From: a virus
Lineage: Duplodnaviria > Caudoviricetes
DNA length: 64,000 nt
Strand: one strand, 5' to 3'
IMG/VR virus record: IMGVR_UViG_3300010965_000001
Span: 128,001 to 192,000 of that record
The translations under genes were made by a program, and so were the position numbers. Every line of letters begins with the position of its first letter. The first letter of the stretch is position 1. Below, one piece after another: positions 4,901-63,003 of this stretch. Under the pieces are notes generated by a model. The model saw only the letters and a program-made list of their open reading frames with translations. It did not search any database and was not told the origin of the DNA.

Positions 4901-7900
4901 TTAACTAACCGTTGATGAAGTTTATTTGGAAGTCCTCTTCCCAATGAATCCCAATCCACCCAGTAAAGTGTAAGATTGTCTCTAAATATAGTATATACTG
5001 GAAATATATCACTCTCAGTAATTTCTTCTACATCCGTAGTTACTCTGTATATTGGATTACCACTATTATAATCTACTATGACGTAATTTGTAGCAGAATT
5101 AGTAAGAGATAAGGTGGTAATTGGTGGCATTGTATAACGTTGCATAAACCCACTATGATTTTTATTGGTATACAATCTTGAAGAACCACTTACCACAGTA
5201 ATTGTACCATTCCCATTATCAATTATAGAAGAAGTTGTAGTTATACCAGCTGCCGCAGTTACTGTTTTTTGAAATGTTAATACTGACCCGAGCGGTATTC
5301 CAGAATCACTCAATCCACTATTATTTAAAAGCATGCCGCCAGTAACGTATAAAGAACCAGTCAAAATAATAGAACCAGTTGAAATGACGGACCCACTTAT
5401 AACTTGCGTTCCTCTAAATATGTTAGATGAAGTTACTGCGAATGAAGATGACAACATTCCATTAAATAAATATGAAGTAGAAGATGTTGCCGCAAATGAT
5501 GCAGACACCACGGAAAATGCAAACGATGCTGTAGATACAAATGATGCCGTGCCAAGTAAACTACCTGTTACACCACCATTTATTCTAAGACTTCCTGTTA
5601 TGACTTGGTTACCACGGAATGTATTACTTCCAGTCGTTGCATACGATGCTGTATATGATGACAAGATTGCACTGCTTGTCACTGCTGCATTCCATTGAAT
5701 GGAATTTCCAGTTTCTCCTTCACCACCAGCGACACCAGCATATACAACTCTATCAACATATAAGTTTCCACCAGTATCTGATGCAGAACTTGATATGGTG
5801 AGAAATGCACGAACGCTACGCGCGTCAGTAATTGGTGCTGTAAGTGTTGTACCATAATCATCAGAATACAACATACCTTGTTCACCACCATAAAATAATC
5901 TAGAACCTATATGAGATACACATACACCGTAATTTACATATCCTGCAGTGGCGCAGTTCGTCCACGTTGCACCATTGTCGGTGGAACGATACAATGCACG
6001 GGTATAATCCTGCCCGGTGGCGATGAAAATATAACCATCAAATTCATCAAATCCCCCGACTGTTGGATAACCACTGAAATGTGAATACAATCCAGTATTT
6101 GATGCCGCCCATGATGCTCCACCATTATCGGAAACAAATACACCGGCGGAAGGATATACCGCACCAGCAAACAATCTTGTTGAGTTTGCGTAAACTGACT
6201 GGATGTTTGTATTAGTTAATCCATTATTCGCCACAGCCCACGTTATACCATAATCACTTGAAATATACACACCAACAGAGGTTCCCGCAAGTAATGTTGC
6301 GCCGTCGGGTGTCGAACAAATGGCATTGATTTGTGATGCTGCCATTCCATTTCTGGATTGTGTAAATATTAACTGTGTTGGTATATTGGTGATGGATGAT
6401 GAATACATTCCAAGTGAATACGTACCTACAAATAATTTTGACCCAAGTGCTTTTAAAGCACGAACCTCAACATTTGGAAGTCCGGCTGTGGATGATGTCC
6501 AATGTAATCCAAAGTCAGTTGATACAGCTACTCCAGTATTTATCGCACCAGGACCAGATCCACCTGCGTAAAGTGTAGAACCGTTACGACCCAATGCCGC
6601 AATATATGATGATGTAATTGCAGTCGTTCCACTTCCTGTGGCAACTTGAAGTGATACACCATTATCTATAGATGAATAAAGTTGGGACATGTTGGTAAGT
6701 GGGTTTACACCCATAAACAAGTAGGACGCCGCGGAGGTTGTGGTATCCGATGTTTTATACACGTACGCATTACCATATACGTTGATAGCCGCTCCTGCAC
6801 TTCCAGCGGTTGTCGTAGTTGTCGTAGTTGTAATTGGTGGGAACGATGTAATATTAGTTATATTACGATTGTTAAGACCATTTATCTGCTGTGTCCAAGA
6901 GGCTCCACCGTTTACGCTATAAAATACACCTTGGTTTTCCGTTCCAACATATAAATTATTATCAGACGTGACATTAAGTGTTGTTATAGTATAGTCAGTC
7001 AATCCGTTATTACATGCCGTCCAGGTGGCACCCATATCAGTTGATTTGTAAACTCCACCATTTACATTATAGATACCTGCATATACTGTTGTACCAACAA
7101 ATTTAAGACAACTAATATTTAGTGTTGTGGGTGGCATACCATTATTTGCCGCTCCCCACGAACGTCCGCCATTTGAGGATGTATAAATACCGTCACCAAG
7201 CGTGCCAGCAAATAAAGTCGGACCACTGTATGCAAGACTTCGTACACCACTAAACAAAAATCCACTTGTGACTTCATGGAAGGTTGACCCATTATTTGAA
7301 GATGTTACCACACCACCGCTACTAAATCCATTTGCAATAAAGATGACAGAAGATGAAATCATCATATCATAATTATACACATTGGAAATTCCTAATTGGA
7401 ATCCATTCCATGTTTTTCCACCATCTGTTGACTTGTAATATGCAGTTGGATTTGCAAGTGGTGGAATTCTAACACCGAGATAAATATCTGGACCATTCGT
7501 TACTAAGTTAGTAAGGATAATCGATGACAGTGTTGGAAAGTCTGGTGAGAGTTTCCAAGTGTTTCCATAATCAGATGAAGTATAATATACGTTGTTTGTT
7601 GTTCCTGCGAATAACCATGAGCCAGATGCACCAAGAATACCATTTACCCACGGTGCCATTGGTGTGTTGGTTACAGCCCAGTTTGCACCACCGTCAAATG
7701 AACGATACAATCCAGCATGAGTTCCTGCGAATAATGGTATGTCAGTTGTAGTTACAGAACTTGTGGTAGATGAAATATTTCCACCGTAAAATGTTTGTGT
7801 CTTATCCCAAATATTTGAAGTATGTAAGATACCCCAATCAACAGTATCACTAATCGTGCCGTACTTTATAATACCACCAGTCATTAAGATATTGCTACCA

Positions 7901-59521: not shown

Positions 59522-59836
59522 TTATTCAATGTATTTATAAAGTGGTAAAAATTTCACGAACTTTGGAAAATTTTCTCTTGGTAAAAGAACACACGCTACT
59601 TCTTGATTACCAAGAGAACTTTCCGTAATTATAACAGACCGTTCAAGATTTTTACATTGTTCAAATGCTTCGTTAGAAACTTTACATACGACTTTTTTGA
59701 ACGAATTCTGCATCCATTCGATGACTTCTGCATCTTCTTTATTCTTGTGGTATGCCGACAATGCCGCATGCGCGCATACAACAGGAACATAATTTGAAGG
59801 AACGTCATCTCTAACTACAATATACATTTTAGACAT
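59522..59836 (-). CDS. Peptidyl-tRNA hydrolase 2 (PTH2)-like protein
   Basis: MYIVVRDD..CAHA..W...FKKVVCKV..LPLY. Confidence 0.75.
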   Translation of the reverse strand: MSKMYIVVRDDVPSNYVPVVCAHAALSAYHKNKEDAEVIEWMQNSFKKVVCKVSNEAFEQCKNLERSVIITESSLGNQEVACVLLPRENFPKFVKFLPLYKYIE

Positions 59837-60633
59837 TATTGTTTCTTTCGTTTACCAATATCTTTAACAACCGCTTTCGTATGGAACTTCCTAATGTCAA
59901 CATCTTGATGACCCTTGAGAAATTCTACAATCCCTTTTAATACACCTACCAACGATTGAACGTCTGCGATTGCCGAATGCCAATTATCAACATTGACTTC
60001 AAGTGCGGTTGATAATTGACCAAGATTAGAATTAATTCTACCGTTTCTTGTCAATGCTCCCAACATTTTTGTTATACCTTCATCACCAGACTTTTCTAAT
60101 GACTGTAATGCCGGGGCGAAATACAACTGTGCAATTTTCAAAGAATCAAGAACTCTAAATCGGTTCATTCGTATTCCATAGTGTTGCCCACGTTGGTTGA
60201 TATATTTCATATCAAATGATGCGTTGTGAGCGATTAATAATGGATTCTCAAATGTTCCTAACCAACCATTAAACTCTTGTAAAACTTGTTGTTCACCTTT
60301 GAATTTTGCGTGACGTTCACCATACTTCGTCATCTTCATAATGTCACGCATCTTCATCGAACCTTTTTTCGGAGGTTCTGTATCTTGAACCTTCATCTTT
60401 GCCTGTGCGTCTTTTCTAAGACTTACTTTTTCATGGAAGATACCAACTTGTTCAAAGGTAGTTCCATCAAATGCGATTGCGGCAACTTCTGTTACTTGTG
60501 TATCAAGATTTTGCGGTTTCAATCCAAGTGTTTCTGTGTCAAAGAATATTAACGTCTGTCCTTCGAACGCCAAAAACTTTTCTAATACTTCCTTGATTGA
60601 TAGTCCGTATATCTTTTTTTCCTGTAATTTCAT
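59836..60633 (-). CDS. DEDDh 3'-5' exonuclease (Pol III epsilon-like)
   Basis: FFDTETLG, AHNASFD, H.AIAD. Confidence 0.85.
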   Translation of the reverse strand: MKLQEKKIYGLSIKEVLEKFLAFEGQTLIFFDTETLGLKPQNLDTQVTEVAAIAFDGTTFEQVGIFHEKVSLRKDAQAKMKVQDTEPPKKGSMKMRDIMKMTKYGERHAKFKGEQQVLQEFNGWLGTFENPLLIAHNASFDMKYINQRGQHYGIRMNRFRVLDSLKIAQLYFAPALQSLEKSGDEGITKMLGALTRNGRINSNLGQLSTALEVNVDNWHSAIADVQSLVGVLKGIVEFLKGHQDVDIRKFHTKAVVKDIGKRKKQ

Positions 60634-61229: not shown

Positions 61230-61391
61230 TTATTTTACAACTTCCTTGACTTTTTTAATGTCACGAACTGTCACCTTCCAGTCCCGCTTGGGAACGTAGA
61301 TGTGCGTCTTGTCGAGTGTGACGCGGTGTTCTGCGGTATAATCCGAAACCTTAGTGATTTCGTTTGTTTCAATGGATTTAATGCACTTCAT
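61230..61391 (-). CDS. Small hypothetical protein
   Basis: Start MKCIKS after GGAG. Confidence 0.5.
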   Translation of the reverse strand: MKCIKSIETNEITKVSDYTAEHRVTLDKTHIYVPKRDWKVTVRDIKKVKEVVK

Positions 61392-61519
61392 AATTGAATC
61401 TCCGTGATTAATGGTTGACAACTTTTTGAGATGAATAGAATTAACAACTTGTAAACTACTTGTAAACAATATAGGTATTGCTCCTATCAAGTGCTCATTG
61501 CAATTGTTTATAAAAAATT

Positions 61520-62395
61520 AAAAGGTTGAGAGATTACACCTTCTACGCATTTCCTTTTCGTAGATTATAGTGACCTTGCGGGTCAGTTTCCTACTTTCTC
61601 CACCAGCGTTCAGCTCGAGTAGAAATGCATGACTTCCGTTGTTTTTAACGGTGACGGTACCGATATGTATGAGCCTACTCAATCCTTGTCAATTCTCCCT
61701 GCCTTGCGAGCAGTTAATCCTTGCGGGGAATAGATGCAGACTTGAATTAAATTCCTACGCCTTGCGGGTTTCAGAACTCTCCATTCCTTTCGGTGGAGAT
61801 TTAAGCCATTTTTGTTCTCATACATGACCACGACTTTGCTGTTTTTAATTGTCTTGGGATTTGAACCCAATCTTTAGTTCCATATACTAACGCTCAACCA
61901 TTTGAGCTAAGACTGTGCAACTCACAAAAGACGTGCGTGGTCAGTGGTTCCATTCTCTTTTGGAAAACGATATGCCACACGCCCTGTATCTTTCGTCTGC
62001 TCGACTACTCAACGGATTTTCAAGATTTTGGTGCTTATGGAACAACCACACCAACACCAACCTCTTTCAATCTAAATAGAAGCCCTTATTTTGCATCACT
62101 CGGACAACTACTCTCCCCTTCATTTCTCGTTCATCGTCTCGTTTGGTATCTGCTTACTCGGCACCACCCGCTAGTCCAGTCCTACGGAGTTACCCTCGGT
62201 CTGTTCGCAGCGAAACTTCTGACATACTTCCAGCAGGATTAGTGGCTGAAAGACTCCGAAACTCGGTTTGCATAAGTGACCAATTGAGATTGGCGACGCC
62301 CTGTGAGCGGGTTAAGTCTTTTACCATATTACTACGGCTTATCTTCTCCCTTGCGGGAATGGATGTCATACCACCCATTTTAAACTTTATAATTC
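61520..62395 (-). ncRNA. Large ornate ncRNA, GOLLD-like
   Basis: About 870 nt with no credible ORF, five C-GCAA-G hairpins, embedded tRNA-like domain, own sigma70 promoter, U-rich 3' end; family call not confirmed by a covariance model. Confidence 0.65.
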
Positions 62396-62409
62396 AAAGA
62401 ACAATTTTG

Positions 62410-62556
62410 TTTCAACTTGATGTATTAAATATACAAAACTTTTATTACAATGTCAAGCCTTATTTCAAAATTCTTTTATTTCTTTTTCGTTACGACTTGT
62501 TTCAACTTGATGTATTAAATATACAAACTTTTTATTACAATGTCAACGCCTTATTT
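62410..62556 (-). repeat. Direct duplication (about 55 bp, two copies) each carrying a TTGACA-N17-TATATT promoter
   Basis: gtttcaacttgatgtattaaatatacaaa...ttacaatgtcaa at about 62410 and 62500; -35 boxes at 62451-56 and 62541-46. Confidence 0.85.
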
Positions 62557-62834
62557 GCTTTTTTATATAATGCGTTAAAAAGAATCATGTCCCACCCATT
62601 TATACTCTGCGCCGAGACCCCATTCACCTGACCAGCAATATGAATAGAATTCGTTTCATTCAACATCCATTGCTCACTTGCTAAATTAAAGAATGCAAAC
62701 TCTCGCATACTCTCATAAATAGGATTTGAACATTTTAGCAGAAATTCCGTTGTAACAGTTATATTGAACGTTGTGGTTTTGTTATTTTTTAGTAAATAAA
62801 ACAAGTCCACAGTTTTCTCATATGCTGATTTCAT
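62535..62834 (-). CDS. Hypothetical protein between early promoters
   Basis: ORF track. Confidence 0.4.
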   Translation of the reverse strand: MKSAYEKTVDLFYLLKNNKTTTFNITVTTEFLLKCSNPIYESMREFAFFNLASEQWMLNETNSIHIAGQVNGVSAQSINGWDMILFNALYKKANKALTL

Positions 62835-62836
62835 AT

Positions 62837-62994
62837 AATATAACCTTTATTTATTGGAAAGTCAACGCCTAAATAAAAATAAATTCAAGGCGACCCGCTT
62901 ACGGATTGGCTTACTCTATCGTCAGATTTTTCGGAGTCTGACCGAGCCTTGAACTTTATGTATTAAATATAGTAACTTTTTAGGCAAATGTCAA
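62837..62994 (-). promoter_or_regulatory. Two further sigma70-type promoters
   Basis: TTGACT-N17-TATATT (62865-62837) and TTGACA-N17-TATATT (62994-62966). Confidence 0.7.
62881..62956 (-). ncRNA. Small three-way-junction RNA
   Basis: 11-bp terminal stem AAGTTCAAGGC/GCCTTGAATTT starting about 10 nt after a sigma70 -10 box. Confidence 0.55.
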
Positions 62995-63003
62995 CGCCTA
63001 AAA

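Follow-up and report, generated by a model that had tools for sequence, protein, structure and literature searches.

In the genome of an uncultured phage, we identified a compact 76-nt RNA fold that sits between a predicted strong promoter and a run of U residues, upstream of a divergent version of the giant RNA GOLLD. The source virus record (IMG/VR) spans 210,562 bp (~210 kb) and holds a Gp23-type capsid gene. Unless they are named as genome positions or belong to another record, coordinates refer to the window, which is the whole stretch of 64,000 nucleotides of this record that was analysed. The promoter, the fold, its GC island, the U-run and the apparent dependence of a neighbouring reading frame (ORF99) on RNA begun further upstream together point to a transcribed structured element that would work as a leader or terminator in cis. 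We predict with considerable confidence that the small fold is a real transcribed element. The interpretation that we favour, at roughly even confidence, is that its closing stem and U-run serve as a leader or leaky terminator for the transcription of ORF99 and GOLLD behind them, and that an 11-nt match between the small RNA and GOLLD is coincidental.

The small fold, its promoters and its surroundings

All features of the locus are read from the minus strand, in the order ORF348 end, P1, 76-nt fold, U-run, P2, ORF99, P3 and P4, GOLLD RNA, and RNA genes crowd the surroundings (34 tRNAs, a tmRNA and GOLLD). Their positions are as follows:

63006-63004, minus strand: stop codon of ORF348, an orphan 348-aa gene upstream of P1
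62966-62994, minus strand: P1 promoter, TTGACA, 17 nt, TATATT, agreeing at 11/12 consensus positions, with a predicted start near 62959
62881-62956, minus strand: three-way-junction RNA of 76 nt, by fold prediction (MFE = centroid)
62929-62939, minus strand: segment complementary to GOLLD, AGACUCCGAAA, 3 nt of which belong to a hairpin stem and 8 nt to its loop
62871-62880, minus strand: U-run AUUUUUAUUU, directly 3' of the closing stem, read from the sequence
62837-62865, minus strand: P2 promoter-like site, TTGACT, 17 nt, TATATT, agreeing at 10/12 positions
62535-62834, minus strand: ORF99, an orphan 99-aa frame with the small RNA on one side and the GOLLD promoters on the other
62428-62546, minus strand: P3 (62546-62518) and P4 (62456-62428), tandem GOLLD promoters, from the promoter scan and repeat finder
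61988-62421, minus strand: variable 5' domain of GOLLD, from the P4 start to the Rfam match and outside the Rfam model
62251-62261, minus strand: target segment UUUCGGAGUCU, pair I8 of the repeat finder
61523-61987, minus strand: conserved 3' domain of GOLLD (RF02032, 180.5 bits, E 4e-49)
61847-61916, minus strand: tRNA-like module inside the GOLLD 3' domain (tRNA model, 41 bits)

The 76-nt RNA is closed by a stem of 11 bp whose upper part, CAAGGC/GCCUUG, is G+C-rich and is extended by A-U pairs. Hairpin 1 (GUCAGA/UCUGAC, 6 bp) carries a 10-nt loop, CUCCGAAAAA, hairpin 2 (AUCCG/CGGGU, 5 bp) carries a 4-nt loop, UAAG, and a 14-nt single strand lies between the two. The MFE structure, at -24 kcal/mol and a z-score of -2.73, is identical to the centroid structure, and its stability was equalled by 2 of 200 shuffles. 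The GC content of the fold is 47% as compared with 22-26% in its flanks, and GOLLD itself lies at 43-45%. An initial annotation of this DNA had described a 76-nt RNA with an 11-bp stem and two hairpins, all of which we recovered at the same positions. From the sequence, the U-run behind the closing stem is likely to mark the 3' end of this RNA or a point of attenuation. A simple terminator scan made no call at the U-run because the stem that precedes it closes a branched fold.

The promoter P1 belongs to a class, TTGAC(A/T)-N16-18-TATA(A/T)T, that has 22 copies in the genome, every one of them on the minus strand, where it precedes protein genes (with leaders of 20-30 nt), tRNAs and, twice, GOLLD. 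Four strong promoter-like sites (P1-P4) fall inside 570 nt and all are directed toward GOLLD. P3 and P4 stand 90 nt apart, and a 50-nt repeat that lies over each of them is 96% identical between the two (repeat finder, D1), which marks the tandem repeats as an apparent recent duplication. This 50-nt repeat recurs as a 72% copy in the P1 region, where it reaches into the first ~17 transcribed bases. We also observed an 8-bp hairpin, UUUUAGGC/GCCUAAAA (62976-63003), that follows directly after the stop codon of ORF348 and holds the -35 box of P1 in its 10-nt loop. The same design of a hairpin around the -35 box is found at two more promoters of the class, at genome positions 203121 and 3482 (minus strand), and such hairpins may be combined terminator and promoter modules.

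P2 overlaps the ribosome site and start codon (62832-62834) of ORF99: its -10 box stops 2 nt short of the ATG, and the AAAGG of ORF99 lies within its spacer. The usual leaders in this phage are 20-30 nt long with an AAAGGA-type site. Given the position of the -10 box and of the AAAGG, P2 should be unable to yield a translatable ORF99 mRNA, and since the start region of ORF99 is buried in P2, translation of ORF99 would need RNA that was begun upstream and that has passed through the fold and the U-run. Either ORF99 relies on transcripts that read through from P1 or from ORF348, or the RNA that P2 drives toward GOLLD is untranslated. Among 5.8 billion proteins, ORF99 had no homologue but itself and ORF348 had none, and no Pfam or PHROG family was found for ORF99.

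The initial annotation had proposed a covariance-model scan of the small RNA, and this led to no family: in Rfam 15 the sole overlap was sR38 at 13.1 bits (E 4.9, gathering score 50), which is noise. As a tRNA, the small RNA was called neither by ARAGORN nor by RF00005 even at E<=10, and its hairpin loops of 10 nt and 4 nt are not of the tRNA-type 7 nt. A hammerhead or a purine-riboswitch-like junction was rejected when the cores were checked by eye and no Rfam match was seen, and an internally deleted mini-GOLLD was rejected as the small RNA shares only the promoter and ~17 nt with GOLLD. We built a covariance model from the small RNA (R1), which found only the small RNA itself in the 210-kb genome and no paralogue.

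Our search for homologues by DNA searches, pattern scans and the covariance model revealed none in GenBank phages, IMG/VR or the JGI metagenomes, and none in 38 GOLLD loci or in 24 phage records related by their capsid; R1 likewise gave no match when it was run on 50 complete phage records. The 1.7-kb locus had no blastn match among 50,697 GenBank phages, the exact hairpin pattern was absent from IMG/VR, and locus searches anchored on ORF99, on a fragment of ORF348 and on the nearby exonuclease found no related locus. A pattern of loop plus junction gave 4 matches in the JGI metagenomes, all of which were random and had neither an R1 match nor a GOLLD. The relatives of the capsid are at best 75% identical and mostly ~60%, and no GOLLD was found in 26 records of capsid relatives. 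On a 107-kb contig with a 57%-identical relative of the exonuclease, tRNAs are present, and no GOLLD or small RNA was found within 6 kb.

What the element may do

In the leader or terminator reading that we favour, host RNA polymerase would start at P1, near 62959, and the first ~80 nt of the transcript would fold into the three-way junction. The 11-bp closing stem and the U-run would then halt a share of the transcripts, freeing an RNA of ~82-89 nt, and read-through transcripts would carry ORF99 and continue toward the GOLLD promoters. The fold would thus have a role in cis, that of a leader or leaky terminator heading the four-promoter array, and would have no function in trans, although the release of the ~82-89-nt RNA may come in addition to the cis role. 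Some considerations count against this reading. Branched terminators are unusual, and the simple scan did not call this one. No homologue was found that could reveal selection on the fold. A promoter that serves only to feed a terminator would be odd, and this speaks for an RNA product that has a use.

Such a used product could be a free-standing stable small RNA that is unrelated to GOLLD, for instance a protein-binding or decoy RNA, with the U-run as an efficient terminator. The strong promoter of its own, the compact GC-rich fold and the U-run would suit an RNA of this kind, as would the RNA-rich surroundings. Phage T4 has rnaC and rnaD, small stable RNAs of unknown function, beside its tRNAs. 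However, no homologue, paralogue or known family was found for the element and it shows no similarity to rnaC or rnaD: R1 reached at best 8.7 bits (E 0.49) against the T4 tRNA region and had no full match on either RNA. An efficient terminator would, moreover, deprive ORF99 of a usable transcript. We consider a free-standing RNA possible but somewhat unlikely.

It could also be that the element has no function at all, in which case P1 would be a diverged duplicate of the GOLLD promoter that is followed by a fortuitous fold. The 72% resemblance of P1 and its first ~17 transcribed bases to the P3/P4 repeat, the 2 of 200 shuffles that fold equally well and the failure to find a homologue of the small RNA are all consistent with such an origin. 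Against this, the GC island is sharp, which speaks against a fortuitous fold, the three helices are clean with MFE and centroid in agreement, and the placement is exact, with a promoter on one side and a U-run on the other. We therefore regard the absence of function as improbable.

The divergent GOLLD and its match to the small RNA

The large RNA is ~910 nt in length and ends in a U-run near 61512. Its 3' half is a full-length GOLLD match that covers the full RF02032 model (1-416) at 180.5 bits, with a gathering score of 150, so that the transcript first described as "GOLLD-like" is a genuine GOLLD. It is nevertheless a low-scoring one. A generic GOLLD pattern returned 37 loci in IMG/VR, all of them canonical GOLLDs, and the six that were scanned scored 280-330 bits as compared with 180 here. 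In these 37 loci, nhmmer detected nothing that resembles the small RNA or the 5' domain, and R1 gave no match. At 180 bits, the GOLLD of this phage is of a divergent subtype of the family. As in the family, it has an embedded tRNA-like linker and a tRNA island nearby, whereas the small RNA is no part of RF02032.

In the passages on GOLLD in Kretsch et al. 2025 (PMC12286853), cryo-EM reveals a 14-mer cage made only of RNA, with kissing loops and with 5' domains that form the caps. The variable linker, which sometimes is a tRNA, faces the interior of the cage, and the function and cargo of the cage are given as unknown (PMC12286853). A partner RNA for GOLLD is mentioned neither in the literature found by a GOLLD keyword search nor in the GOLLD passages of PMC12286853. 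The stretches in the published GOLLD alignment (PMC12286853 supplement) are ~410-490 nt, the size of the Rfam 3' domain, and the alignment could not serve to locate the target segment within a consensus 5' fold.

Just 3' of GOLLD lies a 53-aa ORF (61233-61391, minus strand) that belongs to a family of 45-80-aa proteins with up to 70% identity. It also matches 10-19 repeated stretches within proteins of 1,000-3,300 aa, and from these matches it would seem to be a repeat domain that stands on its own. No GOLLD was found beside the relatives of this ORF.

A pattern for the GOLLD subtype, searched in IMG/VR and GTDB genomes, gave random matches and a single related locus, IMGVR_UViG_3300005253_000596 (here L126). 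Its GOLLD lies at 6175-7165 on the minus strand and has an embedded tRNA. Its score of 143.5 bits falls short of the Rfam gathering score (150), and it would thus escape standard annotation. The 5' domains of the two GOLLDs can be aligned; the hairpin CCAAU/AUUGG of the phage studied here is CCAUC/GAUGG in L126, a change by two compensatory pairs, and both GOLLDs have the stem UUUCAGC/GCUGGAA. The L126 GOLLD is a second member of the divergent subtype. An RNase_T-family (DEDDh) exonuclease gene is located within ~1 kb of GOLLD in both phages (window 59836-60633 and L126 7205-7750), and BLASTP found no similarity between the two exonucleases.

In L126, the exonuclease gene ends immediately before the GOLLD promoter, so the small RNA is absent upstream there. 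The position of the target segment is taken by another hairpin, UGCGGC-AGCGAU-GUCGCA, and in the 11-kb L126 locus the longest same-strand complement to the equivalent segment is 10 nt long, lies in protein-coding sequence and is unlinked to any small RNA. From this single distant relative, the small RNA is no fixed companion of this GOLLD subtype, and the target lies in a variable hairpin. A relative that carries both the small RNA and the target segment was not found in any of our searches. R1 gave a weak match (16 bits) at L126 535-608, which was rejected as a homologue as it is a four-way junction whose loop complements to its GOLLD are at most 8 nt. This 74-nt element (minus strand, z -3.3, 11-bp closing stem) lies between a tmRNA and a tRNA, had no ARAGORN or Rfam call, and could be another non-standard tRNA-like RNA.

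The match that the initial annotation had reported, an 11-nt complement between the small RNA and GOLLD with 8 nt of it in a loop, is exact. AGACUCCGAAA (62939-62929) and UUUCGGAGUCU (62261-62251) are complementary at 11/11 positions (repeat finder, pair I8), and the 11-bp helix cannot be extended at either side by Watson-Crick or G-U pairs. The target lies in the GOLLD 5' domain, ~270 nt upstream of the RF02032 match and at about nt 161-171 when counted along the GOLLD transcript. It begins within the weak 4-bp hairpin CCGA-GUU-UCGG, of which it takes up two loop bases and the 3' strand, and goes on over a short linker to the opening 1-2 nt of the strongly predicted stem UUUCAGC/GCUGGAA. In a separate observation, the unpaired junction UAAGCCA (62907-62913) of the small RNA is complementary to UGGCUUA (61802-61808), a junction of the GOLLD 3' domain that is common to L126; this 7-nt complementarity is at chance level, with ~4 such matches expected.

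How often the 11-nt match would arise by chance depends on the control. Dinucleotide shuffles of the small RNA gave a probability of 0.005 for a complement of at least 11 nt. Windows of the genome are a better control for chance than shuffling, and 1.7% of the same-strand 76-nt windows of the 210-kb genome (2.1% on the other strand) have a complement to GOLLD of at least 11 nt. The chance estimate of ~0.02 in the initial annotation agrees with the 1.7% of windows, provided that GOLLD is taken as the single pre-chosen target. Complements to GOLLD of at least 11 nt occur about once per 4 kb per strand. Seen from the small RNA, there are 8 complements of at least 11 nt genome-wide, four on each strand and three of them of 12 nt, where ~6.6 would be expected by our own arithmetic; the GOLLD site is 1 of these 8, and the seven others are equal or longer.

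The predicted energies are favourable but weak. The 11-bp duplex would contribute about -16 kcal/mol and cost 5.3 kcal/mol to open in the small RNA and 6.5 kcal/mol in the target, while the 8-bp loop contact would contribute -9.9 kcal/mol at opening costs of 0.3 (loop) and 4.3 (target) kcal/mol. The net binding between small RNA and GOLLD is thus about -4 to -5 kcal/mol. When a hypothetical P1 read-through precursor of 1443 nt was folded, the long-range helix took ~9.5% of the ensemble and the MFE structure retained the three-way junction.

If the match were functional, the small RNA would pair through its loop, CUCCGAAA, in a contact extendable to 11 bp, with nt ~161-171 of GOLLD, the two RNAs meeting in trans or being parts of one P1 read-through precursor, and this would tune the folding or assembly of the GOLLD 5' cap domain or dock the small RNA there. 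A number of observations are in line with such pairing. The complement is perfect, the 8 of its 11 nt that lie in the loop are cheap to open, the nominal p is 0.005-0.017, the helix is visible in the precursor ensemble, and the two RNAs have locus, strand and promoter type in common. GOLLD cages are themselves built from kissing loops, with the 5' domains as caps (PMC12286853). The match also lies mostly in a single large accessible loop and on the same strand as its target, which is the nearest large RNA; this is where a designed contact would sit, and it argues against coincidence, as a p of ~0.017 is not negligible. However, this is a single match of modest length among complements that are frequent in the genome, its net energy is weak for a functional RNA pair, and its target is in part taken up by a small hairpin and by the base of the stem that L126 has in common. 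L126 itself has another hairpin there, no upstream small RNA and no small-RNA complement to the region, and R1 is without a match in the 37 other GOLLD loci and the 50 whole phage records. The 1.7% of windows, the 8 complements where ~6.6 are expected, the weak net energy and the lack of both segments in L126 lead us to the coincidence reading: the complementarity is probably due to chance, and functional pairing of the small RNA with GOLLD is quite unlikely.

Significance and comparison with known systems

A dedicated partner RNA would offer the first experimental handle on what the GOLLD cage binds or how it is regulated, and the present evidence falls short of one. That the small RNA docks onto the cap (5') domain by a loop contact of 8-11 bp is, in our estimate, very doubtful. 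If it did, the docked RNA would be a tethered passenger, of which each cage could hold up to 14, or a switch for the folding of the cap and the assembly of the cage, and it would be the first known RNA partner of GOLLD. The solid part of our analysis, an orphan promoter-driven structured RNA or leader that heads a four-promoter array before a divergent GOLLD, adds modestly to the RNA elements known from phages.

Trans-acting small RNAs that work by base pairing include terminated riboswitch or leader transcripts, such as SreA and SreB of Listeria. The element described here resembles them in its short predicted transcript, its own promoter, the U-run, a possible seed in a loop and a perfect 11-nt complement nearby. 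It differs from them in that its putative target is not an mRNA but a giant non-coding RNA that forms a cage, and in the weak net energy of the pairing.

With intrinsic (Rho-independent) terminators and leader attenuators, the element has in common a G+C-rich stem followed by a U-run and a location between two genes, whereas its stem closes a three-way junction and a promoter stands directly in front of it. By position, the nearest known kind are T4 rnaC and rnaD (species 1 and 2), which are small structured RNAs of the tRNA region. At 119-139 nt, however, these are longer than the 76-nt fold, and they are cut from a tRNA precursor whereas the element upstream of this GOLLD has a promoter of its own.
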